Positions 34,974 through 50,241 of a stretch of DNA of 64,000 bases are shown one piece after another; the stretch's first letter is position 1; each line of letters begins with the position of its first letter. Location of the stretch: the IMG/VR virus record IMGVR_UViG_3300025732_000021, positions 1-64,000 of that record; one strand, 5' to 3'. The notes below the pieces were generated by a model, which saw nothing but the letters and a program-made list of their open reading frames with translations, did not search any database and was not told where the DNA came from. Source of the stretch: a virus. A program made the position numbers and the translations under genes.

Positions 34974-35097
34974 ACATTCACATAATGAAAATGCAATATA
35001 TATTTTTAGCATGGATGATATTGTTCTTTTTTCTTATTCAATAAATCCCCGCAAAAGTGCTCGGCCCGCAAAACATAGATTTGTCAAGTTACGACTT

Positions 35098-35372: not shown

Positions 35373-35470
35373 TCTCAAAATGTGAGAAATGTCAGGTTTC
35401 GACTTGACATTATCTCTCAAAAATGTCATAATAATACAAGTAATAACAACAACTAATAAAGGAGAAAGAA

Positions 35471-35638
35471 ATGGCAGTAAAGAACGCACAATACAAGGTT
35501 GGCGACACCTACACCTCACAGAAGTCAAAGGTGACAGGCGTTATCACAGAAATCAAGCCAAACACAGACGGAACTTCTGTTCGTGTCAAACTTGATGTCA
35601 ATGGCACACCTCGCTGGACTACTTGGACAGCAAAGTAA
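35471..35638 (+). CDS. Small SH3-like protein (55 aa), paralog of 35205..35372
   Basis: MAVKNAQYKVGDTYTSQKSKVTGVI...; AAGGAG SD; TTGACA-17-CATAAT promoter. Confidence 0.65.
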   Translation: MAVKNAQYKVGDTYTSQKSKVTGVITEIKPNTDGTSVRVKLDVNGTPRWTTWTAK

Positions 35639-35655
35639 TTTAGCAAACGCTAACG

Positions 35656-35686
35656 CCACCTGAGCAAGTGGAGGCTAAACTGCTCA
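35656..35686 (+). ncRNA. H-type pseudoknot motif, copy 1
   Basis: CCAC-CTGAGCAA-GTGG-aggcTAAAC-TGCTCA. Confidence 0.7.
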
Positions 35687-35755
35687 CTTGATTTTCTATC
35701 GTAGAAATGCTATGATAGTGTAAGACCCAAAAACCCAAAAAGAAAGGAAACACCA

Positions 35756-36178
35756 ATGGCTAGAAATGGCAAAGCGATAAATGTAAAAATCGCTACAACT
35801 AAGGTTATCAAGGCACTAGAAAGCGCACTTGATAAACTAAATAAAGACTTCGCTTCACAAGAGGCGAACGAAGCAAAGCACGACAAGGCAGTAAAGGCTT
35901 GGAACAAGGAAGTCGCTAAATTAGCACTTGATAAAATTGCTAAGGCAGAGGACTTATCTGCTCATAAGAGATACAATAACGAAATCCAAGTATCTTTCTC
36001 TCTACCTGCTGGAACTATCACGCTACCTGATGAACCCAAGAAAGACTATGTGTCTATTCATGAGTGGCAGTATCGTGAGCAGAAAGAGGAAATTGAGAAC
36101 GCAATTCGTATTCTCAAGATGACAGATGAGGAAGTAGTTTCTACTTCTACTTACAACGCTATCGCAAGATACTTGTAA
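35756..36178 (+). CDS. Hypothetical coiled-coil early protein
   Basis: AGAAAGGA SD; TTGATT-17-TATGAT promoter. Confidence 0.7.
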   Translation: MARNGKAINVKIATTKVIKALESALDKLNKDFASQEANEAKHDKAVKAWNKEVAKLALDKIAKAEDLSAHKRYNNEIQVSFSLPAGTITLPDEPKKDYVSIHEWQYREQKEEIENAIRILKMTDEEVVSTSTYNAIARYL

Positions 36179-36184
36179 AATTAC

Positions 36185-36212
36185 TTTCCTGAGCATGAAA
36201 TAAAACTGCTTA
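36185..36212 (+). ncRNA. H-type pseudoknot motif, copy 2
   Basis: TTTC-CTGAGCAT-GAAA-TAAAAC-TGCTTA. Confidence 0.7.
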
Positions 36213-36363
36213 AAGTTTTTCTCTCCTGATAAGCACTACTAAACAATGAAGTGATCGCAGGGTCCTTGTAGTTATTCCTGGAGAGATTGTCATAGCAGGT
36301 TTTGAATGTGTAATCGCAATTGCCCCTGCTATGACCACCCCCCCTTTTTTTGGGGCCGATCCG

Positions 36364-36379
36364 TGTGATGTAAATCACA
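36364..36379. promoter_or_regulatory. CRP-like box
   Basis: Perfect TGTGA-tgtaaa-TCACA. Confidence 0.65.
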
Positions 36380-36466
36380 GTCCATTATGTGAGATTATTT
36401 ACGACTTTGATTTGTATTTCTGCCCTAAAAATGATATTATTAGATTATAGAAAGAAAGGAAACAAA

Positions 36467-36742
36467 ATGATAGCAACAATGCTAGAACTACAAAACGCAA
36501 CACAAGAAGCGGTTCATGATGAAATCATAATGAGCATGGCTTCTGCTATTTATCATCACAAAGACGAAATGTCATCAGAGGAATTCGCTAGGGCTTTATT
36601 TGAGTATTCCGCAGCACTTTCAGCAATGACAACTACACTCGTGACCCATGTATTATTGACAGAATCAGAATTAGGTGTTATGCTTGATACTATTAGAGAA
36701 TTTGATGAACTAGGAAAGGATATCACAAATGGAGACAACTAA
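36467..36742 (+). CDS. Hypothetical early protein
   Basis: GAAAGAAAGGA SD before ATG 36467. Confidence 0.65.
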   Translation: MIATMLELQNATQEAVHDEIIMSMASAIYHHKDEMSSEEFARALFEYSAALSAMTTTLVTHVLLTESELGVMLDTIREFDELGKDITNGDN

Positions 36743-37187
36743 CGAAGTACTGGTACCTGAGCACTACAATGCAAATCAACTTGTAACTTATAAGAAGATT
36801 GAAAATGATGTAGTATCATTTCCTACTATCAAGGTTAATGACCTTGAATGGGAACTGGACCGTAAGCGCTTATTGCAAAAACAAATCGATGAACTTAATT
36901 ATACAATTAGTCGAATCACCGATAACATGACTGAGGAATCCTGGTATAACCCAAATACAGAGGCTGCAGAAATTTTAAATGATTTGTGTGAAATCCTTGG
37001 CCATAATCCAGTGAAGACAATTGATTTCACTGCAAACGTAACAATTAATGGTCAAATTGATATTCCAATGAATGAGGTCGAAGATTTTGATTTAGATTCA
37101 TTTATCTTTGATGTTGTTTCAATTGACACATATCACGGTAATGTTGAAATTCATGATTGGGACGTAAATTCTGTAGAAGAGTGTTAA
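36729..37187 (+). CDS. Hypothetical acidic early protein
   Basis: GAAAGGA SD; overlaps the upstream ORF. Confidence 0.65.
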   Translation: METTNEVLVPEHYNANQLVTYKKIENDVVSFPTIKVNDLEWELDRKRLLQKQIDELNYTISRITDNMTEESWYNPNTEAAEILNDLCEILGHNPVKTIDFTANVTINGQIDIPMNEVEDFDLDSFIFDVVSIDTYHGNVEIHDWDVNSVEEC

Positions 37188-37264
37188 ATATTTGCAGGGT
37201 TCATGAAAGGCCCTGCAATGTACGCAGCATCCCTCTTTCATCCTTTCTTTCAGGGATCTGCAAG

Positions 37265-37293
37265 GGACCTGAGCATGTCCACGTAAACTGCTC
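37265..37293 (+). ncRNA. H-type pseudoknot motif, copy 3
   Basis: GGAC-CTGAGCAT-GTCC-acgTAAAC-TGCTC. Confidence 0.7.
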
Positions 37294-37379
37294 CCTTCCA
37301 AAAAGTGGTCGGCCCGTTTTGTACTAAATGTCCGTTTTACGTAGTTACGAGCAAATCGCCCAAATTCAGGACTTGATTT

Positions 37380-37401
37380 TGTCAGCCCATTGTGCTAAGA
37401 T
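37380..37401 (+). promoter_or_regulatory. PafBC/RecA-NDp-like promoter
   Basis: TGTCAG-cccattgtgc-TAAGAT. Confidence 0.7.
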
Positions 37402-37432
37402 TAGAATAACTAAAAATAGAAAGGAAATAAAT

Positions 37433-38440
37433 ATGGCTCATGAATTAGAATCTGCTAATTCTTTCGCTTCATTCCGTGAACCTGCTTGGCATGGTTTAGG
37501 AACTGTTTTTCAGGAGGAAGTTACTACTGAAAAAATGTTAGAACTCGCTAACCTTGATGGTTGGAATGTTCGTCTTGAAGATGTAGAAATCCCATCTACT
37601 CTTACATCTGATAAATCTTATCAATATGTTGTGCGTGATAATCCATTCACAGCAAATCAAGTTGATGTTCTTGGTGTTGTAGGTGAGCGTTATGTCCCAC
37701 TACAAAATGAAGAACTATTCACATTCGGTGACGCAATTCTTGATGGCGGAGGTCGTTGGGAAACTGCTGGTTCATTGCGTAATGGTCGTGTTGTATTCGG
37801 TTCTCTCGCTCTTGAGCGTGAAACTGTTCTTGACCCAAATGGCGTAGCGGATAAAATCAAAACTTATCTTCTTGTCAATACATCACATGATGGCTCAATC
37901 GCTATTCAAGCAAGCGTAACACCTGTTCGTGTTGTATGCGCTAACACTCTCGCTGTTGCGTTAGGTCGCACTAAGAAAAAGAATGGTGTCAAGCAATCTT
38001 TCAAGATTCGCCACACACAATCTGCTGAGGGTAAGGTTCAACAGGCTCGTGAGGCTCTTGCTGTTGCTAATGCCTACATGGACGAATTTTCTATCATGGC
38101 TAAACTCATGATTGAAAAAGAAATCACAGCACAACAATTCAATGATATTGTTCTTGCTGCGTATCCTAAACCTGATGAAACTAAGAAAGGCGCACTTTCT
38201 AAGTGGACAAATAAAGTTGACCTAATCAATGATATTTACACAGGTGAATTCAATGGCATGATTGCTAATACAGCATGGGGTGCTTGGAACGCACTTACAG
38301 AACGAATCGATTGGTATCGTGGTGGTAAGCGTGGTCTTACTGAATCAATTCTAATGGGTTCAAGTGGTTTTGACCCTGCTATTACAGCAGAAAAAAATCG
38401 TTTGCTAAATGTTGTTCGCAACACTTTAGAATTAGTATAA
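37433..38440 (+). CDS. DUF932 / LGT_TIGR03299 family phage-plasmid protein
   Basis: MAHEL...PAWHGLG...ETAGSL.NG..VF...NTSHDGS...TPVRVVCANTL...HT. Confidence 0.85.
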   Translation: MAHELESANSFASFREPAWHGLGTVFQEEVTTEKMLELANLDGWNVRLEDVEIPSTLTSDKSYQYVVRDNPFTANQVDVLGVVGERYVPLQNEELFTFGDAILDGGGRWETAGSLRNGRVVFGSLALERETVLDPNGVADKIKTYLLVNTSHDGSIAIQASVTPVRVVCANTLAVALGRTKKKNGVKQSFKIRHTQSAEGKVQQAREALAVANAYMDEFSIMAKLMIEKEITAQQFNDIVLAAYPKPDETKKGALSKWTNKVDLINDIYTGEFNGMIANTAWGAWNALTERIDWYRGGKRGLTESILMGSSGFDPAITAEKNRLLNVVRNTLELV

Positions 38441-38449
38441 ACTAATTCA

Positions 38450-38477
38450 ACTCCTGAGCATGAGTATAAACTGCTCA
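38450..38477 (+). ncRNA. H-type pseudoknot motif, copy 4
   Basis: ACTC-CTGAGCAT-GAGT-ATAAAC-TGCTCA. Confidence 0.7.
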
Positions 38478-38961
38478 ATTTTTTATTTGACAAAAGATCA
38501 AAAAAGTGGCCGACTAAAAATATCATCTAATGTTTTTATTACGTAGGACTTGACTTTTCCCCCAAATTTTGGTATTCTAAATTTATGACCCAAACTAAAA
38601 CACCACTATATGTGGACGAACTAATAATGAAAATCTATGAGGATAATTATTCTCATTTTGATTTTATAGAAAACATGAATGGTGGAGATTGTGATTGTAA
38701 TCTTCATTTTGCTATCAACCTTATCTACGAATATGTGAGGGATTAATGCTAGGATATACAGTTGAGCAGGTAGAGAATATGGCTACAGTTTTAAACTATT
38801 CTTTACATCATCATATTAAGGATACTAAGTTTGCAGAGGAAGACAAAGCAGTTCTTAGAGATCTAGAAGATTTATTACTAGGATTATTAGCAGAGGGACG
38901 TGTTTGACATCCCCTTGATAATTTGCTAGAATAATACAAGACCTAATAGAAAGGACCCACA

Positions 38962-39648
38962 ATGCCAAATTGGTGTTATAACTATCTATCTGCGGAGGGA
39001 CCTGTAGATGAGATATCAAAACTAAAACAACAACTCAATAAACCATTCACTAAGGTTCACGACCAATGGAATCCTGAGACTGGGCAAATGGAATTGACAG
39101 AAACAACATATTCAAATCCTATATTTGCATTTCATAACATCTATAACCATATTCAAGACGGTGTATCTGAAGAAGAGTACATCAAACAACCTGACCACTC
39201 ATTACCATTAGCAGAAGCATTGAAGTTTGAGGGTAATCATTGGTACGACTGGAATGTACGCCATTGGGGAACTAAATGGGACGTTGCTGTTCATGATGAT
39301 AGAGAGTATTCAGATACTGAGATAACAGATGAAAGCGATAGTTCTATTGGTTATAAATTCAATACCGCTTGGTCTCCACCACATCCTATTATTCATACGT
39401 TGTCAGAGCAATATCCTAATATAAAGTTTACCTTATCTTATGAAGAAGAAACAGGTTGGGGTGGCGAGACTATAATTGTTGCTGGTATGGAAGAATCACA
39501 CGAATCATACGGTTGGAAATGTAGAGAATGTGACCATGCTGAGGAAGAAACACCATACTGTGAAGAATGTGATTTTGACACATGCCCTTCGTGTGGGTAT
39601 AATGAAGCAGACGAACCATGCGAGGAGCACAGAGAGGAACATCAATGA
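38962..39648 (+). CDS. YubB/DUF1281-like ferredoxin-fold protein with a C-terminal Zn ribbon
   Basis: MPNWC, WYDWN..HWGTKWD, FNTAWSPP and CxxC motifs; TTGACA-17-TAGAAT promoter. Confidence 0.75.
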   Translation: MPNWCYNYLSAEGPVDEISKLKQQLNKPFTKVHDQWNPETGQMELTETTYSNPIFAFHNIYNHIQDGVSEEEYIKQPDHSLPLAEALKFEGNHWYDWNVRHWGTKWDVAVHDDREYSDTEITDESDSSIGYKFNTAWSPPHPIIHTLSEQYPNIKFTLSYEEETGWGGETIIVAGMEESHESYGWKCRECDHAEEETPYCEECDFDTCPSCGYNEADEPCEEHREEHQ

Positions 39649-39860
39649 TTGATTATATAAAAAACTATCTTCAATTACATATGCAGTCTTTGAATCAGGA
39701 CCTAGAAGTATTATCTAATAAAATGGATGAGTTAGACCCTGCCTCAAAAGACTTTGCTGAATTAGATATTGAATATAACTTTATAAGTGGACAAGCAACT
39801 GGTATTAGCCATATAATTGCTGTAATAATGGAAAAGGAGGAAGAAAATGGAACTAACTGA
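39645..39860 (+). CDS. Hypothetical protein
   Basis: GAGG SD; ATGA overlap with the upstream stop. Confidence 0.6.
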   Translation: MIDYIKNYLQLHMQSLNQDLEVLSNKMDELDPASKDFAELDIEYNFISGQATGISHIIAVIMEKEEENGTN

Positions 39861-40113
39861 TAATCTACAAAAGCAAGTAGACATTGGCAGCAGTGGCCTT
39901 GACATCATGCACGGTGAACTCAAATGGCTTATGAAAGAGGCTGAAGAGCAACTGGAATTAGCACAAGAAGCAGAGAACCAATCTGGGGAGGCTATGGATT
40001 CCATGGACCGCACATATTGGCAGGGACAGTTAGACGCTTTATCTCACGTATATTCTCTAACTTATCAATTATCATTCGCTATAGCAGAAAGGGAAGACAA
40101 TGGAAGAAACTAA
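39847..40113 (+). CDS. Hypothetical protein
   Basis: AAGGAGG SD. Confidence 0.6.
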   Translation: MELTDNLQKQVDIGSSGLDIMHGELKWLMKEAEEQLELAQEAENQSGEAMDSMDRTYWQGQLDALSHVYSLTYQLSFAIAEREDNGRN

Positions 40114-40331
40114 AACATATGAGGTAGAAATCATTCACGAGCCTTCTGGGATCTATATGAACTTTACTACAGAACTAGAAGGAGACCATATTGATGACGA
40201 GAACGCTTGGGAATTCGTAATGGATGAACTCTCAGTTATTTGTAATAGGATAGAATAATGTATGAGCAGTTGATATTAGACCTAGAATTTGATATCATGG
40301 AAGAAAACCCTACTACCGAAAGGACCCTATA

Positions 40332-40688
40332 ATGGGAGCACGTTGTACATTCGTTTTTAAGCAATCAGAGGACCAGGCAGTTGCCTTATACAGCCATTGG
40401 GGCGAGTACTCCATGTATGAAGACCTGGCAGCAGCCTTGCAGCATGCAGCACCACGTCTTGGCGATGAGTCATACTACGTACGTATGGCTGTAAGTTATC
40501 TAATTAAGGATAGTATTATGGATGAGACTGGGTATGGAATTTATGCCTGCAATCCTAACGACCTTGGATTTATGGACCACCCCGTACTAATCGACTTAAT
40601 TAATAAGACTGTAACTGATGACACTGGGACACATTCTATACAAGATTTTATTAACTACCATAATCTTGTGACGACGGTCACATCATAA
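40332..40688 (+). CDS. Hypothetical phage protein
   Basis: MGAR...LYSHWG motif; GAAAGGA SD. Confidence 0.65.
   Translation: MGARCTFVFKQSEDQAVALYSHWGEYSMYEDLAAALQHAAPRLGDESYYVRMAVSYLIKDSIMDETGYGIYACNPNDLGFMDHPVLIDLINKTVTDDTGTHSIQDFINYHNLVTTVTS
40667..40682. promoter_or_regulatory. CRP-like box
   Basis: Perfect TGTGA-cgacgg-TCACA at the 3' end of the ORF. Confidence 0.5.
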
Positions 40689-40709
40689 AGAGGGTTGGGT
40701 CCCCTCTAC

Positions 40710-40753
40710 GGGAGCGCATGTTTGTCGTGGGCTTGCGCTCCCCCTTTCTTTTT
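40710..40753 (+). terminator. Intrinsic terminator
   Basis: GGGAGCGCA...TGCGCTCCC stem followed by a T-rich tail; preceded by an AGAGGG/CCCTCT hairpin. Confidence 0.6.
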
Positions 40754-40776
40754 GATACAATGATGATAGGAGAACT

Positions 40777-40992
40777 ATGATTAGACGACACAGACTAACT
40801 GACGAGGAAAAAGTTGCCATGCGACTTTCTGCCCTTGTTTCTGACCTGCGCCTTGACATCGAACAGGTTGGTGAGTATTTGGCAGTAATAGCACCAACAG
40901 TTTCCTACAACAGACTTATCACAATAGCCCAAAGCGCACAATACCACAAAGAGGAGAAATACAATGAGCAATACCAATACAGACTTTTCTGA
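40777..40992 (+). CDS. Hypothetical protein
   Basis: AGGAG SD. Confidence 0.6.
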   Translation: MIRRHRLTDEEKVAMRLSALVSDLRLDIEQVGEYLAVIAPTVSYNRLITIAQSAQYHKEEKYNEQYQYRLF

Positions 40993-41233
40993 TAAGTGTA
41001 ACATCTTGGGAGATTTATGGTGTAACTATAAAGGTGATGTTGACTTCTCTGACTTCATAGAGTACAATGACATTGGTTTGCCATTAGCATTTGCTATCTC
41101 ACAAGAAATTGTTCCTGCCACTGATATGGCAACTAACTATGTAAATGAAACATGGGATTTATTTTTAGAAAGCCTTGAAGTAAAAGATAAGGGTTTCAAA
41201 ACTTTAGATGAAATCCTGGGTCCACTTGCATAA
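40964..41233 (+). CDS. Hypothetical protein
   Basis: GAGGAG SD. Confidence 0.6.
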   Translation: MSNTNTDFSDKCNILGDLWCNYKGDVDFSDFIEYNDIGLPLAFAISQEIVPATDMATNYVNETWDLFLESLEVKDKGFKTLDEILGPLA

Positions 41234-41264
41234 GCCCTGAAACGGGTCGGTCAGTATTTTCAGG

Positions 41265-41890
41265 TTATCAAACCATTACGATATCAAACCATTTTTCCCA
41301 GATTACGATCCAAACCATTTTATGGCCAAACCATAATAAATTGTGTTATGATAGTTTGTATGGCCAGACACTTTTATAGAATGAAGTATCCAAACCAAGC
41401 AAAAGATCATGATAGGTCTTTATCTAATGCCTTTGTAGCCTTTACTCATATGATTGGTTTGTCTAAGTACTTTTCCTTTACCCCGCTCGATTTTGACAGG
41501 GATGCCTGGAGGACGGCCCATGAGGCGGGGAATAAAAAAGATTACGATCATACCACTAATACCCCTAATAGTCAATAACAAACCATATTTTCTGGTTTTA
41601 AAACATTTTCAAACCTTTTAAATCTTATTTCGGATTATTTCGGATTTATTTTATTTTTTGGCAATTTTCATGCAAATTCCTTTACGAAGACACTTGACAA
41701 ACCATGGTTTTGCATGTATAATGCCAAACCTTTTATACATGGTTTGACAGATATGGGGCATATATGATATAAGGGTTTGGGGATATATGGTTTGATAGAT
41801 AGGATGGTTTGTCAGCGCATTACGATCCCCGCCTTAAAAAGCGCTCCATCACCCATTACTCTCCACTATGCTCCACTTTACTCCACTTAT
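41265..41890. repeat. Symmetric CAAACCAT/ATGGTTTG repeat array (candidate origin or packaging region)
   Basis: About eight AAACC copies left of the palindrome AAACCATGGTTT (41699-41710) and four GGTTTG copies to its right; ATTACGAT x4; CTCCACT x3. Confidence 0.6.
41694..41722 (+). promoter_or_regulatory. Consensus sigma70/SigA promoter
   Basis: TTGACA-17 nt-TATAAT. Confidence 0.7.
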
Positions 41891-41955
41891 AAAATAACAG
41901 TAAGATTTTTATAAGGCTAAATATCATGGTAAACTAACTATTCAGGGGTGGTTAG

Positions 41956-42453
41956 ATGCAAAATATAGTGTTTAAAGATGTTTTTACAGATGAAGAAATT
42001 GCATCCATAAAACAAACAATCAAGGATAACTCTCACCTTAAACTGGTGGGTAAAACAATTCATCAAATTGACAGAGGCAGAGATGACTTATATCTAAACT
42101 ATATTATTGATCCTAAAATCCTAGATAAGATACAAAACTATTTAAATACATTAGGGGATTACGAACTAGGTCCTGTTACTTGGATAGAATATAATAACAA
42201 AATAACAAACCCTAATCTTCCACCACATAAAGATCCAAAAAATGTTAAATTAACATTCGACTATCAACTAGAATCAAACGTAGATTGGCCAATAGTAATT
42301 GATGATATAGAGTATCAATTAAAAGATAATGAAGCCATAGCATTTGACTCAAGATCTCAGTGGCATTGGAGACCAGAGAAAATATTTAAGGATGGGGACT
42401 ATATGCAACTTATATTTTTCTATATCAATGATCCAGATGTGGTGCTTGAATAA
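41956..42453 (+). CDS. 2OG-Fe(II)-oxygenase-like protein (PHxD...HWR subfamily)
   Basis: LPPHKD...FDYQL...W...HWRP. Confidence 0.65.
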   Translation: MQNIVFKDVFTDEEIASIKQTIKDNSHLKLVGKTIHQIDRGRDDLYLNYIIDPKILDKIQNYLNTLGDYELGPVTWIEYNNKITNPNLPPHKDPKNVKLTFDYQLESNVDWPIVIDDIEYQLKDNEAIAFDSRSQWHWRPEKIFKDGDYMQLIFFYINDPDVVLE

Positions 42454-42811
42454 TGTTATCTGATGAATCCAAAATAGATATCATATCTGAGATTATTCAT
42501 GAGCACCTTAAGGGCAAACATAAGGATGCTCTATCTAAGAAATTGGCGGGGGATATTGTTGAGGCCTTATCTATAGACGAAGAACCGCCATCATGGTATA
42601 TTCATGGTTAGTGTATAATGGAAATATGATTGAAACATTGAAATGTTATTACTGTGATAACAAACCAGAGTTTACTCAACCAGATAAAGATACTGGCGTT
42701 ATCGTCGATGTATGTAAGAAACATTTCATTTATATGTATATGGGGTAATTATGAACGATAAGAAAGCAAATGAAAGTATCAAGGCTCTAGGGTATATTAT
42801 CCTAGGTATGG

Positions 42812-43018
42812 TTGTCTTTACTGTACTATGGAGTGTGTTTATTGGGTAATAGGCCTCATAGGGATTACGAAGAACTTCCCTATCCCGTCGAACTTTTGAT
42901 AAAAACAAAAGCACCTACCAAATGGCTCTTAATAGATAGAGAAACAGGACAAGTCTATCAAGGTAATCCTGCTGGTCATTGGGATAGGCTTGATCCAGTT
43001 ATAAAGGAGATAGAATGA
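42812..43018 (+). CDS. Hypothetical protein (start uncertain)
   Basis: TKAPTKWLLIDRETGQVYQG segment. Confidence 0.5.
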   Translation: MSLLYYGVCLLGNRPHRDYEELPYPVELLIKTKAPTKWLLIDRETGQVYQGNPAGHWDRLDPVIKEIE

Positions 43019-43419
43019 AAGTAGTTTGTGTAACAAATAGCGATTTAGCATCCATGATTGGAGAACTATTACGACAGAGATTTGAAATCCCACATGTTCC
43101 AATGCAGTCTTTTGTGGTTTTAAATGTAGATTCTGATACCAAACCAGATTACGAACATGTCCTTATCGGTATTAATGATAAGAACGTATCAAACCTAGTA
43201 TTTGATGCCTTAAGCGATAGTTTAGACTTTAAACTAGACATAGATGTATTGAATAAGGATAACATGATTGATCATATTAAGATTATCTATGAATTCCTTG
43301 CGAAAAATGGTCTAGATGATGATAACTGGAAAAACAAAACAGGCCTAACCTCTCTGATTGATCACATATTAAACATTGAATCAGTTAATTGGAAATGTCC
43401 ATGTGGGCAGTGTAACTAG
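43015..43419 (+). CDS. Hypothetical protein
   Basis: AAGGAG SD; C-terminal CPCGQC. Confidence 0.6.
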   Translation: MKVVCVTNSDLASMIGELLRQRFEIPHVPMQSFVVLNVDSDTKPDYEHVLIGINDKNVSNLVFDALSDSLDFKLDIDVLNKDNMIDHIKIIYEFLAKNGLDDDNWKNKTGLTSLIDHILNIESVNWKCPCGQCN

Positions 43420-43483
43420 ATACTAAACCTTATTGACCGTATAGGTCATAAATAGGTTTGATATTTCTATTTACCGCCGAACT

Positions 43484-44362
43484 TTAAATCTTTAATTTTG
43501 AATTTATTAATTGAAGCATTTTGTCCGCTACTTCTTTATTCCATCCGCCACCTGGATGATTGTTATCTCCAGCCTTGCCCCAATACTTTATATCATGATT
43601 TCCATAATCTTTTGACAATGTTTGTGGCCACATAGTATCTAATTCAAAATACGAATCATATGATTTAGAAAAAAACTCAAAAGTATCTCTTGTTCCATTT
43701 TCCCAAAAAGTCCACAAAAATAAAACATTATTTGCTTTACATATTTGGTCAAGCATATGAATCATTGTTGTGTATATAACTAAATTATGATGAGGCAGAT
43801 AATTTTTTTTCCATGATTCTAATGTTTCTTTAATCCAACCACGTGCTGCAATAGTATATAAATTGGTTTCTATAAAACGTGACTGCTCTAAATCAAAATG
43901 AAAACCTCTGTGCATATCTGGAAAAGTAATTAATAAAACATCTGGATATCCGTATTTATTAAAAAATGTGCATACATTTTTTGTTATTAAGTGAATAGAG
44001 GCACTCATCAATGAAACATTATATTCTTCAACATCATATTTATCTCTTAAACTTTCTGCAACTACATTAGAATATCTAAATTCTTCTGGCATGTCTTGAC
44101 CAAAACCAAACGAACATCCTGATGATAGTATAGTTAATTTATTATTGCCTTTTTCAACTTTTTTAAAGTTATTTGTTCTAAAACCTTCTTTATTTATTTT
44201 ATATATTACATCGCTAACATTTTCACTCATAGTGTAATAATAATCATCTACCCATTTTCCTTTTCTTCTTAATAATGATCCGCCCATTCTTTCAGTACAA
44301 AATTGTGAAAAATCAAAAAATGAAATATTGTTTTCTATATCTTTGCTTATATTAAGTTTCAT
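43484..44362 (-). CDS. SGNH-hydrolase-like protein
   Basis: NKEGFR...SGCSFGFG...DNNHPG. Confidence 0.55.
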   Translation of the reverse strand: MKLNISKDIENNISFFDFSQFCTERMGGSLLRRKGKWVDDYYYTMSENVSDVIYKINKEGFRTNNFKKVEKGNNKLTILSSGCSFGFGQDMPEEFRYSNVVAESLRDKYDVEEYNVSLMSASIHLITKNVCTFFNKYGYPDVLLITFPDMHRGFHFDLEQSRFIETNLYTIAARGWIKETLESWKKNYLPHHNLVIYTTMIHMLDQICKANNVLFLWTFWENGTRDTFEFFSKSYDSYFELDTMWPQTLSKDYGNHDIKYWGKAGDNNHPGGGWNKEVADKMLQLINSKLKI

Positions 44363-45237
44363 ATGTTATCCTTTAAAATTTTTAAAACTCTTTCAGCAAA
44401 TAATTCATGCCATCCTCCGCCAGGATGTTTTCTATCTGCAGCCTTGTCCCAATATTGAACATCATTTTCTCTTAAATTTAATTCATCATTTATTAGGCAT
44501 TCCGATTTAAAAAATGATGGAAGTTCAACAGAAAATTTATCAAAAATATTTTGTGTCATTTTATCATAAGCAGAAAATAAAAATTTAGATCCAGAAACAT
44601 TACATAAATTTTGCAACAAATTTATATTTATAATACTTTGCAAAAATATATTTTCTGGCATCATTTGTTCCATTGAAAGTTTTCCTTCTTTAGTTCTAGG
44701 TGTTAAATCTATATAGCAATCTTCAACTGGATCGTAAGATATTGTTCTAAAAGTATCTGGAACTAACATTATTATTAAATCTGGCATTCCGTATATATTA
44801 ATAAAAGCAGATATATTTTTTATGCAAAGCATTATAGATGAACCCATAATACCTAAATTATAATAATCAATATTATATTTTTTAGATAATTCTTTTGCAA
44901 CTAATTCAGTCCAAAGCATTTCCTCAGGTAGGTCTTGTCCAAATGTAACTGAACATCCTGTAAAAAGTACTGTATATTTATTTTTATCTATATTTTTAAA
45001 ATTGTTAGATCTAAAGCCGTCTTTATTTAATTTATATTGTATTTTAAAATTTTTATGATTGGTATGAACATTTGTTGTATACAAATAATCGTCCTTCCAA
45101 AAACCTTCGCCTTTTCTTCCATCTTCTCTTGGTTTTGCATTTTCAAAAACCTTAAGCATTCTATTATTATAAATAATATTAGGGTTTAATGTTTTCCAGT
45201 TTTCAGGTCTTTCAAAAAACTTATCATCTTGTATCAT
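44359..45237 (-). CDS. SGNH-hydrolase-like protein (tandem paralog)
   Basis: NKDGFR...TGCSVTFG...DRKHPG; TATAAT 7 nt before ATG 45237. Confidence 0.55.
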   Translation of the reverse strand: MIQDDKFFERPENWKTLNPNIIYNNRMLKVFENAKPREDGRKGEGFWKDDYLYTTNVHTNHKNFKIQYKLNKDGFRSNNFKNIDKNKYTVLFTGCSVTFGQDLPEEMLWTELVAKELSKKYNIDYYNLGIMGSSIMLCIKNISAFINIYGMPDLIIMLVPDTFRTISYDPVEDCYIDLTPRTKEGKLSMEQMMPENIFLQSIININLLQNLCNVSGSKFLFSAYDKMTQNIFDKFSVELPSFFKSECLINDELNLRENDVQYWDKAADRKHPGGGWHELFAERVLKILKDNI

Positions 45238-45648
45238 GTATACCATTATACTTGACTTTTGAATTAGCATAAGATATAATGATTATATGAATGTTACTTA
45301 TTTACACCCCTTTTGGCTCATTGCTGCTATGATAGCAGGGTGGGTTGTTTGTTATATTCAAATGAAATATGGTAAAAATGACAGGGAATAGAGTAGTCAT
45401 ATGCAGCACGTGTAAAAAAGAAATCGAATTGCGTTGGGGAATATTTGGTCACGATGCATTGTCTAGACACATGAAGGAGCATAAATGAAATCATACAGAT
45501 TTGATGATTTAGATAATGAAGGATATGAAATTGAAATACCTTCTGATATTGTAAAAGACATAATAATAGATCATCTTAGAAAAACATATTATTGGCCAGT
45601 TGCCATACTTTCATTTATTATAGGTATTTTATTAGGAGTTTTAGTATC

Positions 45649-46011
45649 ATGAGTAATTTATTTGAAGACACCGTTAGAATTAATAAATCCCGTCCACCAT
45701 TAAGATGGGTTGCAGATTTATTTGGAGATGTAGCAGGCTGGGCAATACTTCGTATTTCATATTTAGATGAATCAAAAGATTTAGGAATGATGTATCAATT
45801 TTATTCTTTTGTTTGGCGAATGACATGGCCACTATATAATAAGTTTGGCACTGTATATAAATGGGATTTTGATATGAGCGGTGACGGGTGGAATGATTAT
45901 GATGAAGATGGAATACCTTATTGGGAGAAGCCAGACTTTATTGATGCATTTGTTTGGGACTTTGAAGATGAAGAAACAGGCGATGCTTTTAGAGTTTTAA
46001 ATAAAGAATAA
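45649..46011 (+). CDS. Hypothetical protein
   Basis: AGGAG SD before ATG 45649. Confidence 0.55.
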   Translation: MSNLFEDTVRINKSRPPLRWVADLFGDVAGWAILRISYLDESKDLGMMYQFYSFVWRMTWPLYNKFGTVYKWDFDMSGDGWNDYDEDGIPYWEKPDFIDAFVWDFEDEETGDAFRVLNKE

Positions 46012-46018
46012 AACTCAT

Positions 46019-46092
46019 GGAGCAGTAGCCAAGTTGGTCAAGGCCCCGAACTCATAATTCGGTTATCGTAGGTTCAAGTCCTACCTGCTCTA
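46019..46092 (+). tRNA. trnM: tRNA-Met(CAT)
   Basis: Cloverleaf; CCGAA-CT-CAT-AA-TTCGG anticodon arm; TTCAAGT T-loop. Confidence 0.85.
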
Positions 46093-46096
46093 CTTT

Positions 46097-46170
46097 GGAA
46101 TATGGCTGGCTGGTGGTCAGAAGGTGTCTTATAAGCATCTTAGAGTTTGGTTCAATTCCAAAATATTCTA
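46097..46170 (+). tRNA. trnI: tRNA-Ile(TAT)
   Basis: GGAATAT/ATATTCT acceptor; GGTGT-CT-TAT-AA-GCATC arm; TTTGG-TTCAATT-CCAAA; several G-U pairs. Confidence 0.7.
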
Positions 46171-46171
46171 C

Positions 46172-46244
46172 GCCCTTGTAGCCCAGTGGCAGAGGCACAC
46201 GACTTAAAATCGTGCAAGCGTTGGTTCGAATCCAACCAAGGGCA
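46172..46244 (+). tRNA. trnL: tRNA-Leu(TAA), short variable arm
   Basis: GCCCTTG/CAAGGGC acceptor; CACGA-CT-TAA-AA-TCGTG. Confidence 0.88.
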
Positions 46245-46248
46245 CTAA

Positions 46249-46320
46249 ACCTCTGTAACTCAGTGGAAGAGTAGCGGACTTCTAATCCGTTTGTCGATGG
46301 TTCGAATCCATTCAGGGGTG
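46249..46320 (+). tRNA. trnR: tRNA-Arg(TCT)
   Basis: ACCTCTG/CAGGGGT acceptor; GCGGA-CT-TCT-AA-TCCGT. Confidence 0.88.
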
Positions 46321-46334
46321 CTACAATTAAACAT

Positions 46335-46410
46335 TGGTCTGTAGTTCAGTTGGTAGAACACTCGACTGTTAATCGAGATGTCGCAGGATCGAGACCTGCC
46401 AGACCAGCCA
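46335..46410 (+). tRNA. trnN: tRNA-Asn(GTT) with encoded CCA
   Basis: TGGTCTG/CAGACCA acceptor; CTCGA-CT-GTT-AA-TCGAG; atypical T-loop ATCGAGA. Confidence 0.85.
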
Positions 46411-46411
46411 A

Positions 46412-46488
46412 GGTCCGTTAGTTCAGTTGGTTAGAACGCTACCCTGTCACGGTAGAGGTCGTCGGTTCAAGTCCGATACGGATCGCCA
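46412..46488 (+). tRNA. trnD: tRNA-Asp(GTC) with encoded CCA
   Basis: CTACC-CT-GTC-AC-GGTAG anticodon arm. Confidence 0.9.
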
Positions 46489-46489
46489 A

Positions 46490-46562
46490 GTCTCCATGGT
46501 CTAGAGGCCTAGGACTCCACCCTTTCACGGTGGCAACACGGGTTCGAATCCCGTTGGAGATA
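46490..46562 (+). tRNA. trnE: tRNA-Glu(TTC)
   Basis: CCACC-CT-TTC-AC-GGTGG anticodon arm. Confidence 0.9.
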
Positions 46563-46563
46563 C

Positions 46564-46635
46564 GCCTCCTTAACTCAGGGGTAGAGTACTCGCCTTGTAA
46601 GCGAGTTGTCGTAGGTTCAAATCCTACAGGAGGCT
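46564..46635 (+). tRNA. trnT: tRNA-Thr(TGT)
   Basis: GCCTCCT/AGGAGGC acceptor; CTCGC-CT-TGT-AA-GCGAG. Confidence 0.9.
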
Positions 46636-46661
46636 CGTAATACTAAACAAAAGGAGAAAAT

Positions 46662-46883
46662 ATGAAACCAGGAATAATTGTAATGGTTATTAGTGATGAT
46701 CATAATGACAAAAAGGCTGCAGAAGTATTATCTGTGGATAATGATTTGTGTACAATAAAAATGTGTGATACTCAAGAAATTATAAAAATGAATCAATCAA
46801 ATTTAAAACGTAAAAAATTATGTGTATGTAATACTTCAAAAAATAAACCATTTTGTGATGGATCTCATTCATTAATGTTTTAG
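46662..46883 (+). CDS. CDGSH iron-sulfur domain protein
   Basis: LCVCNTSKNKPFCDGSH; AAGGAG SD. Confidence 0.8.
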   Translation: MKPGIIVMVISDDHNDKKAAEVLSVDNDLCTIKMCDTQEIIKMNQSNLKRKKLCVCNTSKNKPFCDGSHSLMF

Positions 46884-47629
46884 TTATAGTTTTTACTTTC
46901 TATTACTATACAAATCTGATCACTCATAATTCTAGTATTAGTATTAAAATATTCTTTTAAATTATCCAATGTATTATGAATAACTTTTTCTGTATCCATA
47001 GTTAAGTTATAACAAAGAGATGCCCATCTGTTTTCCCCTAGTATTTCACATGCTTCTTCTAAAAACTCTGGTATTTCATTATGAAATTCTTGTCCTCTTT
47101 TTACATTTCTAAGCATTATAACCATTGGATAATTGTAGTCTTTTCTTTCTTTTAAGAATTGAATTCTTTCATTTTTTACAAATGGCAAAAAAGATTCAAA
47201 TATAAAATTATGCATAGTTCCAGTAACTGCTACTGCAGCCATAACAACAGAAGGTCCTGGTGTTGATGTCACATGTATTCCTTCAGCAATACATTTTTTA
47301 ACTATCCTTGCTCCTGGGTCTGCTACCCCTGGCATACCTTCATCTGAAATTAAGAATACATCTTCTCCATTTTTTAATAAATCAATTATTTTATTCATGT
47401 TATGAAGTTCGTATGCTTCTCCAGGTTCTCCGCCATCAGAATCATACTCAATGGATATAGTATTGACATTTGGTTTTTGCATTCCAAGTGCGGGCCAAAT
47501 TCTTTCAAATGCCTCTTCTCTTTCTATCACTATATTTTTTGCATTTTGAATATATTTAAATGCTCTTACTGACATATCTTCCCAATTGCCAATAGGCAAT
47601 CCAACTAAATATAATTTTCCAAACGACAT
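46880..47629 (-). CDS. rsmI: RsmI-like tetrapyrrole-methylase-fold SAM methyltransferase, copy 1
   Basis: LYLVGLPIGNWEDMS.RA, LISDEGMPGVADPG, PGPS, F.FE.FLP. Confidence 0.75.
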   Translation of the reverse strand: MSFGKLYLVGLPIGNWEDMSVRAFKYIQNAKNIVIEREEAFERIWPALGMQKPNVNTISIEYDSDGGEPGEAYELHNMNKIIDLLKNGEDVFLISDEGMPGVADPGARIVKKCIAEGIHVTSTPGPSVVMAAVAVTGTMHNFIFESFLPFVKNERIQFLKERKDYNYPMVIMLRNVKRGQEFHNEIPEFLEEACEILGENRWASLCYNLTMDTEKVIHNTLDNLKEYFNTNTRIMSDQICIVIESKNYN

Positions 47630-47664
47630 ATATTCATTATACACTATGGTATAATTTTAATATT

Positions 47665-48327
47665 ATGAAAACTCCAGAAAAAGGTCCAGCATATAATCAA
47701 TACATTGAATTAAAAAACTCTCAAACTCCTATTTCTAATCAAGATTTTGAGCCAATAATTGTAGATAACATATTTTCAAAAGAAGATATAGATCATTTAT
47801 ATGAAATAATTAATAACACTCCAGAAGAAAAAACTCAAATACAAAAATGGGGCGGAATGAAAGCATGGCATATAGACTTAGGGCCAAGAATAAAAGATAA
47901 AATTAATGAGGCAGTCAAAAAATCTTTAGGCGACCATGTTCGCTTAGTAGAAGATCACTCATTTGCTAGATATAGTATGGAATATGGATGGATGACAAAG
48001 TTATTTCCACATACAGATATGAGAGATAAACAAAGAATTACTTTTGATATTCAGGTGCATGCTGATGAAGAATGGGGAGTAGTTGTTGAAGATGTAGAAT
48101 ACTTTTTACAAGATAATCAAGCATTAGTATTTGCTGGGACGCAACAGCCACATTGGCGTAGAGCAAAAGAATTAAAACCAGGAAGTCATCAAGACATGAT
48201 ATTTTGTCATTTAGAATATGTTGATGATGTACCTTATGATGACGGTCAAGATCAAATATTACATGAAAGAAATAAGTTCTTTTCTGAATATTACGATATG
48301 CATCCAGACCCAACAACTTTTTATTAA
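47665..48327 (+). CDS. 2OG-Fe(II)-oxygenase-like protein (PHxD...HWR subfamily)
   Basis: LFPHTD...FAGTQQPHWR. Confidence 0.65.
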   Translation: MKTPEKGPAYNQYIELKNSQTPISNQDFEPIIVDNIFSKEDIDHLYEIINNTPEEKTQIQKWGGMKAWHIDLGPRIKDKINEAVKKSLGDHVRLVEDHSFARYSMEYGWMTKLFPHTDMRDKQRITFDIQVHADEEWGVVVEDVEYFLQDNQALVFAGTQQPHWRRAKELKPGSHQDMIFCHLEYVDDVPYDDGQDQILHERNKFFSEYYDMHPDPTTFY

Positions 48328-48328
48328 T

Positions 48329-48502
48329 ATGGACAATATAGAAGAGTCAATTAAAAATGTTCTTTTTCAAATTGGAAAAGATATAAAGGTACATAAATTA
48401 ATAGATGGTAACTTAATATTAGATATTGATTATGATAAATATACAAAAGAAATAGTAGATATTTGTAATAAACATATAGAAAGAAGAAAAGGTGTTTGGT
48501 AA
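48329..48502 (+). CDS. Small hypothetical protein
   Basis: ATG 48329 follows the upstream stop. Confidence 0.5.
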   Translation: MDNIEESIKNVLFQIGKDIKVHKLIDGNLILDIDYDKYTKEIVDICNKHIERRKGVW

Positions 48503-49253
48503 ATTACATCTAATTGGATCTCCAATTGGCAACATGTTGGATACATCTCAAAGGTTATTAAATGCATTTAATGACGCTAAATATATATGCGTTGAAGATA
48601 TAGATAGATTTAAAGAATATTGTTCTTTTAATAATTTTATATATAATGCAGAACTAATTGATATATGTTTTTCGTTAAACAATAACAGAGAAAACGAAGT
48701 AAAAGAAAGAATAATTTCAATTTTAAAAAATGGCGAGGATGTTTATATAATATCTGATGAAGGTATGCCTGGTCTTGCAGATCCTGGTACTATACTTGTT
48801 GATGAAGCAATTAAAAATGATATACAAATTATAACTACTCCAGGGCCATCTGTTGCTCTTGCTGCAGCATCATTATCCAATATATTAAATAACTTTTTAT
48901 TTGAAGGCTTTATGCACAGCGTAGATGAAGAAAGACATAAAAAGTTTGAATTTTTAAAAATGTCTCCTGTTCCTATGATTTTTTTATTACATAATTCAAA
49001 TCATAGACCAATTGATAAAGAAGATAAAATACACATGCTTCATAATTGTTTTGATCATGATATTTTTATTAATGAATGTATTACATTTTTTGGCGAAGAA
49101 AGAAAAGCAGTTTTTTGTATTGATTTAACTACAGATCATCAAAAAGTAATTCGTAGTACTTTAAAAAATATAAAACAATATATAGATCAAAATAAAATAT
49201 TTGGCAATTTATGCATTGTGGTAGATGGAATAAATAATAATTTATCTATTTAG
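48492..49253 (+). CDS. rsmI: RsmI-like methyltransferase, copy 2
   Basis: LHLIGSPIGN..D.S.R, ISDEGMPGLADPG, PGPS, FLFEGF. Confidence 0.75.
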   Translation: MFGKLHLIGSPIGNMLDTSQRLLNAFNDAKYICVEDIDRFKEYCSFNNFIYNAELIDICFSLNNNRENEVKERIISILKNGEDVYIISDEGMPGLADPGTILVDEAIKNDIQIITTPGPSVALAAASLSNILNNFLFEGFMHSVDEERHKKFEFLKMSPVPMIFLLHNSNHRPIDKEDKIHMLHNCFDHDIFINECITFFGEERKAVFCIDLTTDHQKVIRSTLKNIKQYIDQNKIFGNLCIVVDGINNNLSI

Positions 49254-49395
49254 TATCTTTTTTATATTCTCCATATTTACCAAGAATTGCTTTAATTGTA
49301 CCGTCTTTTCTTAAGCGTACAACATTACCATTCTTAATTTGTATGGGATTAAATCCATCGTGCCTTTTGTATGAACCAGATGATTTTTTAGACAT
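49246..49395 (-). CDS. Small basic protein (49 aa)
   Basis: Manual translation MSKKSSGSYKRHDGFNPIQIKNG...RLRKDG. Confidence 0.5.
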   Translation of the reverse strand: MSKKSSGSYKRHDGFNPIQIKNGNVVRLRKDGTIKAILGKYGEYKKDTK

Positions 49396-49398
49396 ATA

Positions 49399-50142
49399 TC
49401 ACCAAATTTCTGTTATTCTTTCTGTTTTTGAAATTATTTTTCCAAAACCTTCAAACAAAGTTTTTTCTACTGGTACACAATTTGGAACCATTTTGCCGTT
49501 TTTTTCTTTCATTCCTCTTTGTACATATCCTTCCCAGCATGGATTTGCTTTATTTACATCCCCGCAGCAATCGCCCTTCATTTCATTGGCTTGACAAACT
49601 GGACATAAATCACAGCACACATTCATATCTTTACATGTAGGACATCCGCAACCATCATATGTACAGGGGTCATTAGACGATTGACCAACTACAGAAATAT
49701 CTTCTTTTATAACTTCAGTCTTGTCCATATTTTCATTTAATTCAAGTGATGGCATTATCATTATATCTTTTGCTTTTGCTCCAACAAAATACTCTGTCTC
49801 TTCAAGTTCGCCATCTTCCATTTCAAATAACTGAATTAAAATAGCAGGATCTTCTGAAGATGCTTCAATAGAATATTCAGATCCTGGCATTCCAAGCATA
49901 CCTTCTGTCATTACGTGAACTACACGACCAACATACATTTCTTCTTCATGTGGGGCCATAACCATATCGCCCTCTTTAACCATGGCCTTACCTATATTTC
50001 CTTCAGATCTATTGATTGCATAAATTTGTCCTGCTGCTTCTTTTTTTGTTTTATGGCAGCCCATGACTTCTCCAGTACTGGTTTTAACTGCAGGGTAACC
50101 AGAACATCCGTGAGATCCTTTAGCACCTACTTTATAAGGCAT
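49399..50142 (-). CDS. Hypothetical protein with a Cys cluster and a PCWEGY...MVPNCVP motif
   Basis: The motif recurs in large-phage proteins; leaderless TGATATAAT promoter. Confidence 0.65.
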   Translation of the reverse strand: MPYKVGAKGSHGCSGYPAVKTSTGEVMGCHKTKKEAAGQIYAINRSEGNIGKAMVKEGDMVMAPHEEEMYVGRVVHVMTEGMLGMPGSEYSIEASSEDPAILIQLFEMEDGELEETEYFVGAKAKDIMIMPSLELNENMDKTEVIKEDISVVGQSSNDPCTYDGCGCPTCKDMNVCCDLCPVCQANEMKGDCCGDVNKANPCWEGYVQRGMKEKNGKMVPNCVPVEKTLFEGFGKIISKTERITEIW

Positions 50143-50165
50143 AAACCCATTATATCATCAAATAA

Positions 50166-50194
50166 GAGCAGTTTAACCACATGCTCAGGTGGTT
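50166..50194 (-). ncRNA. H-type pseudoknot motif, copy 5 (downstream of Hsp20)
   Basis: AACCAC-CTGAGCAT-GTGGTT-AAAC-TGCTC on the minus strand. Confidence 0.7.
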
Positions 50195-50241
50195 TATCTA
50201 CCGATAGGCCTTGCGGATATGTCGGATTACCTTAGATAATG

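Follow-up and report, generated by a model that had tools for sequence, protein, structure and literature searches.

The virus record IMGVR_UViG_3300025732_000021 (121,867 bp, 33% G+C) has portal and ribonucleotide reductase proteins among its PHROGs assignments, as expected of a phage, and its first 64 kb, hereafter the window, carry five dispersed copies of a short element predicted to fold into an H-type RNA pseudoknot of about 30 nucleotides (nt). Copy 1 (35656–35686, + strand) reads CCAC-C-TGAGCA-A-GTGG-AGGCTAAAC-TGCTCA and scores 37.6 bits with our model R1. Its stem 1 (P1) pairs 35656–35659 with 35668–35671, a single C at 35660 forms loop 1 (L1), the 5′ strand of stem 2 (P2) occupies 35661–35666, and loop 3 (L3, 35672–35680) leads to the 3′ strand of P2 (35681–35686). 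It starts 17 nt past the stop codon of a 55-aa open reading frame (ORF, 35471–35638). Copy 2 (36185–36212, +; 40.2 bits) starts 6 nt past the TAA of ORF 35756–36178, with TTTC/GAAA as P1 and a TGCTTA tail that creates the wobble G11.U36. Copy 3 (37265–37294, +; 37.6 bits) stands 77 nt past the stop of ORF 36729–37187 and has P1 GGAC/GTCC, ACGUAAAC as L3 and the tail TGCTCC; its orthologue in a related contig (L018) differs by a single loop change. Copy 4 (38450–38477, +; P1 ACTC/GAGT, tail TGCTCA, 46.6 bits) ends the cistron of a DUF932 gene (37328–38440, +; Pfam PF06067, E 1.5e-46), starting 9 nt past its stop. Copy 5 lies on the minus strand (50165–50194; 46.6 bits), with a P1 of six base pairs (bp), AACCAC/GTGGTT, an L3 reduced to AAAC and the tail TGCTCT; it starts 37 nt past the nearest upstream ORF in our ORF call, and the gene upstream is an Hsp20 gene (50242–50661, −; Pfam PF00011, E 1.7e-20).

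All five copies were found at the positions and on the strands given by an earlier reading of the letters alone (hereafter the original prediction), which had placed them in sense orientation 6–80 nt downstream of stop codons, with DUF932 and Hsp20 among the upstream genes. Measured to the nearest ORF of at least 45 aa, the distances are 6, 9, 17, 37 and 77 nt, every copy is co-oriented with its flanking ORFs, and the Pfam matches bear out both gene assignments. The copies share the plan P1 - C - UGAGCA - W - P1′ - N0-5 - AAAC - UGCU(C/U). Considering the core pattern GAGCA-N5-25-AACTGCT, five occurrences in the window compare with 0.09 expected, a number that none of 100 shuffles reached; the loop word by itself is weak (eight against 3.6 expected). 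A regular-expression scan of the whole genome returned no sixth copy, and the covariance model, run over the same 121,867 bp, separated the five copies (37.6–46.6 bits) from a next best match of 10.9 bits. Single-sequence folding energies of the copies are unremarkable (z −0.4 to −2.7) and nested folding is blind to pseudoknots, so that support for the structure comes from relatives rather than from energy. A megablast search of the phage collection with 35400–38600 gave no matches; DUF932 and a tail protein, used as protein queries, returned distant phage relatives only and pointed to no host.

As read from the alignments, P1 has 4–6 bp with a C-G closing pair, L1 is a C, loop 2 (L2) is one nucleotide, P2 is formed by UGAGCA with UGCUCA, and L3 is 4–9 nt long and ends in AAAC (consensus NNAAAC). 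An extra pair, U10-A37, seen in copies 1, 2 and 4, brings P2 to 6 bp and leaves L1 as one C. By analogy with known pseudoknots, the adenines of L3 probably lie in the minor groove of P1 as a triplex.

Covariation was assessed in three samples of relatives. In the first two, P2 was fixed by the search pattern; the third, unbiased for P2, consists of 80 loci fetched through the DUF932 protein alone and searched with a P1-only model, and its P2 counts come from 93 distinct rows out of 121 matches (E ≤ 0.01) in the first 40 of these loci. Across the samples P1 is paired in 92–97% of cells, three of its four pairs are changed on both sides in many rows, pairs 5–7 show four to six pair types each, and the closing pair is C-G in 93 of 93, 121 of 121 and 123 of 127 distinct rows. 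Overall pairing reaches 93–95%, compared with 78–82% in shuffled alignments and 24–47% in slid controls, and none of 500 shuffles attained the observed covariation score. The claim that stem 1 changes sequence and yet stays paired is supported, P1 covarying in these samples. The second claim, that the loop GAGCA pairs with the downstream TGCTC, is upheld by the DUF932-fetched sample, in which P2 covaries although no constraint was placed on it: pairs 11–14 are intact in each of the 92–93 distinct rows in which neither position is a gap. Pair 11-36 is GC in 85 rows, AU in six, UA in one and GU in one; pair 13-34 is GC in 92 and AU in one; pair 14-33 is CG in 73, UG in 18 and UA in one. The wobbles among these pairs amount to 18 U.G and one G.U. 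A15-U32 is kept in 87 of 92 rows (a recurrent variant, AAAAGGCUCA, disrupts it) and U10-A37 in 60 of 93, U.G included. The only DUF932 locus missed by our loose pattern (L290) has UAGGCA/UGCCUG, that is, two compensated pairs, and in L009 and L140 a whole base pair is inserted on both sides. Against the structure stand C14.A33 in L193:6996, A15.C32 in L163:2011 and U11.U36 in the Staphylococcus aureus copy, together with a measure of further pair types that did not rise above shuffles in these alignments. Two other readings of the tail were dropped: a likeness to boxA (NusB/E), which concerned UGCUC alone and was abandoned once the covariation of P2 was seen, and a CCA-end or tRNA-minihelix, for which an A follows UGCUC in 79 of 110 instances but the CC is not consistent.

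The family extends well beyond this phage. An exact pattern, CTGAGCA-N5-14-AAACTGCT, matched viral contigs at least 138 times in at least 117 loci; among the 138 matches listed, 92 have an identical 7-nt gap, where chance would spread them evenly over ten gap lengths, and in 120 at least three complementary bases flank the loop. A second scan, with a stricter pattern and one genome per prokaryotic species, found at least 118 loci in genome contigs against a chance yield that we calculate at about nine, with a P1 of at least 3 bp in 115 of the 120 matches listed. Record titles among the matches listed include Saccharibacteria, Aminicenantes, Anaerolineae, Firmicutes, Bacteroidota, Cyanobacteria, Actinobacteria, Proteobacteria and one DPANN archaeal bin; most of these records are metagenome bins, in which phage contigs may be co-binned. 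Three cultured phages of different families carry one copy each according to model R1: Mycobacterium phage Labelle (46.1 bits), Paracoccus phage ParMal1 (40.9 bits) and cyanophage S-RIM4 (38.2 bits). A BLAST search of a plasmid collection with a 36-nt copy gave weak matches, two of which were scored with the model, namely phage-like plasmids of Staphylococcus and Bacillus (33.2 bits and 21.2 bits, partial match). The relatives L252–L331 are far richer than this genome: 288 model matches (E ≤ 1) in 310 kb, or about 3.6 per 4-kb locus, compared with five copies in 122 kb. In five Saccharibacteria bins (L126, L154, L167, L176 and L190) the pseudoknot occupies a seemingly chromosomal, non-phage locus, 22 nt ahead of the start of a 138-aa ORF and in the neighbourhood of genes for a D-Ala-D-Ala carboxypeptidase, a HIT protein and valyl-tRNA synthetase. 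In three further bins (L182, L183 and L213: a Leptolyngbyaceae cyanobacterium, a Cloacimonadota bin and one other) it stands between direct repeats that by eye resemble CRISPR repeats, and these copies appear to be spacers from a knot-bearing phage.

The element has no exact match in Rfam 15, as the original prediction required for novelty. At the gathering score the whole window yields seven tRNAs only, and with the threshold relaxed to E ≤ 10, 35600–38550 (2951 nt) and 50150–50215 (66 nt) give only chance-level matches, for example to the PutA thermometer, mir-1912, DdR11 and RybB. A phage precedent for the fold is the pseudoknot of T4/T2 gene 32 mRNA, an H-type structure with a one-base L1 spanning a stem 2 of 6–7 bp. 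It differs from the present element in being a single 5′ leader for gp32 autoregulation, with no sequence likeness and no multiple gene-end copies, and according to PMC10690425 it has no Rfam model. Our literature searches found no description of the element, although the supplements of that same source, with more than 10,000 candidate phage RNAs, may list the motif. A pseudoknot that marks gene ends in DNA phages of bacteria and in mobile elements is thus undescribed as far as could be checked, the roadblock kind being known from eukaryotic RNA viruses.

The element follows the strand of its gene: 287 of the 288 model matches in the 80 DUF932 loci lie on the gene strand. Together with the covariation and the tolerance of G.U pairs, this strand bias supports the original prediction of a functional RNA element with an H-type fold. 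Copies are seldom found inside long ORFs: by crude ORF calls, 5 of 106 overlap one on their own strand and 10 of 106 one on the opposite strand. Distances to the stop codon were taken from the 152 of 224 distinct instances that have an open frame of 60 codons or more upstream, its stop codon being the loop UGA or lying no more than 60 nt away. From stop to loop C the distance is 9–16 nt in 102 of the 152, with 9 nt in 31, 10 in 19, 11 in 14, 12 in 12 and 13 in 14, and the left edge is sharp: only two fall below 9 nt, and in four the frame stops at the UGA of the loop. The spacer between stop and P1 is therefore no shorter than about 5 nt and most often exactly 5. GenBank gene calls give 6 nt from stop to P1 in Labelle, 9 nt in S-RIM4 and 6 nt in ParMal1. 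Since about 5 nt of mRNA sits within the ribosome channel beyond the A site, the minimum spacer suggests that the knot is placed as near to the stop as it can be without being melted for termination.

The same spacing invites a reading directed at translation, in which the knot would lie at the mRNA entry site of a terminating ribosome, delay or arrest it, block read-through or sliding and uncouple neighbouring genes. Known recoding pseudoknots offer a model for it: the beet western yellows virus (BWYV) −1 frameshift knot and the murine leukaemia virus (MuLV) read-through knot are compact H-type structures with a 1–2-nt L1 and an A-rich L3 ending in AAAC, and luteoviral and retroviral recoding knots are placed 5–8 nt past the A-site codon. 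The phage element resembles them in its compact fold, short L1, AAAC before stem 2 and spacing from the stop, the mode of which coincides with its minimum of 5 nt, the same as in recoding pseudoknots; the ribosome is moreover the sole partner common to all hosts seen, and coremin-type knots, described below, stall ribosomes according to PMC10520033 and PMC10321173. However, inspection by eye of the five window copies and the three from cultured phages revealed no slippery heptamer and only short frames past the stop. Unlike in recoding signals, the distance from the stop is variable in one third of instances, which lie more than 16 nt away, and the distances do not keep to one frame. Behind many copies comes a tRNA or terminator, which leaves nothing for the knot to uncouple, and one class of small frames terminates within the knot itself. 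We consider a role in translation quite unlikely.

The class in question comprises conserved micro-ORFs of some 20 aa that have a Shine-Dalgarno sequence of their own and stop at the UGA in the pseudoknot loop. It is found in genome contigs at 12 loci (L127, L134, L137, L148, L153, L157, L161, L164, L186, L187, L200 and L234) with the consensus M-K/R-R/K-F/Y-x-V/M-P-R-x-A-H-C-x-E-G-C-x-x-x-S, and the 20-aa product matches no Pfam or NCBIfam family at E ≤ 1.

The element is linked to its upstream gene. In all 80 DUF932 homologue loci (69–98% protein identity) a knot lies 9–22 nt past the stop, with P1 sequences that vary among them, and Hsp20 homologues occur in at least nine other pseudoknot-bearing loci, again with a P1 that differs from the one in the window. 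DNA homology to the window stops at the 3′ border of copy 4 in L010, L038, L044, L068 and L073; it crosses this border in L018 and L088, or stops within the gene in others (three loci altogether). Among 135 upstream ORFs, Pfam recognises DUF932 in 15, DUF7249 in five, ArdA in two and DUF3768 in two, with single cases of RadC, antirepressor, SSB, Hsp20, minor capsid protein and others, for 18 families in all; the 124 downstream ORFs are a mixture of 41 families, with scaffold proteins in six. The latter arrangement is also found in two phage-like plasmids, Bacillus tropicus pBEMB20-3 (L250) and Staphylococcus aureus pC322_2 (L251), whose knots lie between a minor head gene and the DUF4355 scaffold/major capsid genes; in L250 an annotated coding sequence (CDS) with a helix-turn-helix domain ends at the loop UGA.

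Such heterogeneous flanks, upstream and downstream, do not suit a specific binding site, be it an operator or an aptamer, for a conserved protein or small molecule. This reading has in its favour that P2, L1 and L3 are almost invariant across phyla, as is typical of recognition sites, and that the architecture resembles small aptamers such as preQ1-I. P2 nevertheless tolerates compensated changes, one phage may hold up to several copies per 4 kb, Rfam contains no matching riboswitch, and no shared partner gene was found, none having been sought. We therefore regard a dedicated binding site as very unlikely. The preQ1-I-like aptamer of the original prediction, in particular, is not borne out. 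Both preQ1-I (RF00522) and ToxI are, like the present element, pseudoknots of about 30–36 nt, and L3 of preQ1-I is A-rich. RF00522 gave no match at E ≤ 10, though, and here the 3′ strand of P2 is UGCUCA with no Shine-Dalgarno sequence, the context is not that of que genes, and an L2 of one nucleotide is too short for a ligand pocket.

Nor does the arrangement of the copies recall type III toxin-antitoxin systems, for which the original prediction had suggested a decoy. ToxI repeats form tandem arrays beside a toxin gene, whereas here five single copies are spread over 14.5 kb, and in the relatives likewise the element occurs as single, dispersed gene-end copies across many phyla, with no tandem arrays and no match to an Rfam antitoxin family; no toxin-family scan of the neighbours was made. 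More broadly, the knot could be a decoy for this or another RNA-sensing defence, or a DNA recombination site that marks cassettes. Anti-defence types do occur among the upstream genes (ArdA, DUF932, RadC, SSB and antirepressor), and the mosaic junctions with relatives fall on knot borders. Yet phage gene borders are mosaic junctions anyway, the knot is also found in head-gene operons and in the chromosomal Saccharibacteria locus, and the strict strand bias and G.U pairs favour RNA over duplex DNA. Either role is, in our judgement, highly improbable.

What follows the knot is varied, and several of the arrangements are sites at which RNA ends are made. A tRNA starts 3–12 nt downstream in 11 of 106 instances, and of the 80 DUF932 loci, 62 have tRNA-Asp after the knot. 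According to our own pattern, a type III hammerhead comes directly after the knot in 3 of 240 instances (L140, L143 and probably L220), its cleavage site by eye about 6 nt past UGCUC; an Rfam hammerhead match lies elsewhere in L143. In these tRNA and hammerhead arrangements cleavage would leave the knot at the 3′ terminus of the upstream RNA, severed from everything downstream. Five of 18 loci scanned (L031, L165, L179, L230 and L235) have the DUF2800 RNA motif (RF02960, 140–160 bits), which begins no more than about 2 nt from the 3′ end of a knot that itself sits after a 64-aa ORF. A terminator hairpin is often downstream in the micro-ORF loci, and at least five U occur in the 8 nt directly past the knot in 60 of 222 instances (27%), with no terminator-like site called at any of the five window copies. 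In many other instances the ribosome-binding site of the next gene lies within about 10 nt; start codons stand 18–35 nt past the knot in about one third of instances and are otherwise scattered, and a start codon or a tRNA follows within 40 nt in about half. Base composition changes just behind the knot, with 5–15% G at +3 to +9 against about 16–28% further on, and 31–45% U at +3 to +11 against 18–35%. The downstream 50 nt fold slightly better than shuffles (−7.7 against −6.5 kcal/mol), with a mild enrichment of segments at −10 kcal/mol or below (27% against 19%).

Sharing neighbourhoods with hammerheads and other phage RNA motifs, the knot might itself be a site of RNA processing or a self-cleaving RNA of very small size, and its topology recalls the P1-loop pseudoknot of the pistol ribozyme. 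With two helices and some six conserved unpaired bases, however, it matches no Rfam family of small self-cleaving ribozymes (hammerhead, pistol and others) at E ≤ 10, and in L140 and L143 it stands beside true ribozymes instead of replacing them; self-cleavage by the knot is accordingly hard to credit. A further comparison is with the role of hammerheads in prophages, where they flank single genes, ardA included; Perreault et al. (2011, PMC3088659) interpret this arrangement as a means of processing long transcripts. Hammerheads (RF00008) and the present element are alike as small RNAs beside single genes in mobile DNA, ardA among them. The knot differs in having neither a hammerhead core nor known cleavage, and would protect an end, not make one.

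The window holds several other features. Eight tRNA genes are clustered at 46019–46636 (Met, Ile, Leu, Arg, Asn, Asp, Glu and Thr by ARAGORN, seven of them in Rfam); no pseudoknot precedes this cluster, and in relatives one precedes tRNA-Asp. A second repeated word, AAAAGTGGYCGRC, occurs on the + strand at 37301–37313 and 38502–38514, 7 and 25 nt past copies 3 and 4, with a one-mismatch copy at 35053–35065 (three found against 0.06 expected); L018 also has it, downstream of its orthologue of copy 3, and it may be a regulator site. A G+C-rich, self-complementary island at 36250–36360, in the 290-nt gap past copy 2, and a hairpin TGCAGGG...CCCTGCA at 37194–37218, ahead of copy 3, are both unusual for a genome of 33% G+C and match no Rfam family. 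Scans for promoters and terminators returned shuffle-level counts (87 against 90.8 promoter-like and 5 against 9.5 terminator-like sites), so promoter-like words seen after copies 1, 3 and 4 were given no weight. In three river metatranscriptome runs the summed contig depth over 36042–36255, which spans the 3′ end of ORF 35756–36178 and copy 2, is 120–810, compared with 0.4–35 over the 107 nt before. The contigs of relatives diverge exactly at 36178 or 36210; the depth possibly comes from relatives and contigs cannot rank expression, hence these values were not used as evidence.

Among known RNAs one of the closest counterparts of the knot is coremin (xrRNA-C), an exonuclease-resistant RNA (xrRNA) of eukaryotic viruses. 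Coremin consists of a hairpin of 3 bp, closed by a sequence-specific C-G pair and bearing a YGAD loop, followed by a spacer, G-UU-AAACUAC, in which A16, A17, C18, U19 and A20 are essential, and by a second hairpin (PMC6546385). The first loop base has been modelled as L1 and is irreplaceable, and selected variants pair the loop with spacer bases 18–21, both forms stimulating −1 frameshifting (PMC10321173); coremin also blocks scanning ribosomes and tolerates longer loops (PMC10520033). The C-G closing pair that coremin requires on a first hairpin of 3–5 bp (PMC6546385) is present in the phage knot, the first loop C serves as L1 in both, and an NN-AAAC-U linker stands in the same register, followed by GCUC here and by AC in coremin (UUAAACUAC). 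As in the Watson-Crick variant (xrRNA-WCC), loop bases pair directly after AAA, the U pairing here with the last loop A, and coremin, too, is usually located after coding regions. On the other hand, the loop is CUGAGCAW instead of YGAD or YGNNAD, so that only the first C agrees; P2 has 5–6 bp and is formed with the loop of hairpin 1 itself; the bases after the spacer pair with that loop, with no obligatory separate second hairpin (hp2); and the bacterial hosts lack Xrn1, coremin viruses being beny-, cucumo- and other eukaryotic RNA viruses. The phage knot thus falls outside coremin proper, and by analogy it plausibly works alike. A paper on class 3 xrRNAs (PMC12397905) mentions neither coremin nor phages, the Minerva preprint deals with other RNAs, and no transcript data were found in the paper on Mycobacterium phage Patience.

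Carried over directly, this likeness would make the knot an xrRNA-like barrier to machines that move 5′-to-3′ (RNase J, RNase E scanning from the 5′ end, sliding ribosomes), shielding or insulating the RNA downstream. The shared register speaks for it (PMC6546385 and PMC10321173), as does the ability of coremin and its Watson-Crick variant to stall Xrn1 and scanning ribosomes and to stimulate −1 frameshifting (PMC10520033 and PMC10321173). Context supplies further points, since the knot lies ahead of the scaffold/capsid genes noted above, in six of the 124 downstream ORFs and the two plasmids, and about half of the instances have a start codon or tRNA within 40 nt. Where a tRNA or hammerhead follows within 3–12 nt, however, cleavage cuts the knot off the downstream RNA, and the knot travels with the upstream gene, not with the downstream one. 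To our knowledge RNase J is, moreover, absent from some of the host groups in the scans. Protection of downstream RNA appears rather unlikely.

The reading that we tentatively favour, and to which we give somewhat less than an even chance, is that the knot is a mechanical roadblock protecting the 3′ end of the message of the upstream cistron. Its inheritance with the upstream gene, its tight coupling to the stop codon and its placement before sites that make RNA ends together point to 3′-end protection; the blocking activity and its direction we infer. Each copy would act in cis on the polycistronic messages of the phage. A long message would first be cut or ended just downstream of the knot, by RNase P at a tRNA, by a hammerhead, by a host endonuclease acting on the tail, which is poor in G and rich in U, or by a terminator, and 3′-to-5′ exonucleases would then trim back and halt at the knot, so that the upstream gene would stay translatable. 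Of the functions put forward in the original prediction, an exonuclease-blocking cap or processing punctuation is the one that fits the context best.

Several observations weigh against this roadblock. P2 and L3 are nearly invariant across phyla, which is not obviously needed for a mechanical block and hints at a conserved partner or a demanding tertiary fold. The closest analogues, coremin and the luteoviral knots, resist machines that move 5′-to-3′, not 3′-to-5′. In those phages whose knot lies between minor head and scaffold/capsid genes, the message in need of protection should be the downstream one, and the terminator hairpin that follows the knot in micro-ORF loci makes a 3′ barrier redundant. 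The stop codon coincides with the loop UGA in the 12 micro-ORF loci and in the one annotated CDS, so translation must melt the knot there. Finally, some metatranscriptome contigs extend past copy 2, contigs showing neither ends, strand nor level; four metatranscriptome runs contained 20–25% of the sampled words.

A wider version of the comparison with coremin, rather unlikely in our view, is that the knot would be its prokaryotic counterpart: a host-independent, possibly two-way roadblock at gene borders, effective against exonucleases and perhaps ribosomes, with which phages, prophages and plasmids of many bacterial phyla, together with hammerheads and tRNAs, would cut messages into stable one-gene units. 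Were this so, the core of C-G pair, loop C and AAAC-U would be one physical solution found in both domains, plant and fungal viruses included.

The absence of the element from Rfam 15 means that phage annotation overlooks hundreds of copies. If the protective roadblock that we favour is real, a 30-nt RNA would set message boundaries and stability without any phage protein, across a great variety of phages and mobile elements that includes cultured phages of Mycobacterium, Synechococcus and Paracoccus, and it would account for the independent expression of early and accessory genes that are densely packed and differ in origin. It would also offer a compact, portable part with which to stabilise or insulate cistrons in synthetic operons, and would add a bacterial branch to the exonuclease-resistant RNAs, known hitherto from eukaryotic viruses.

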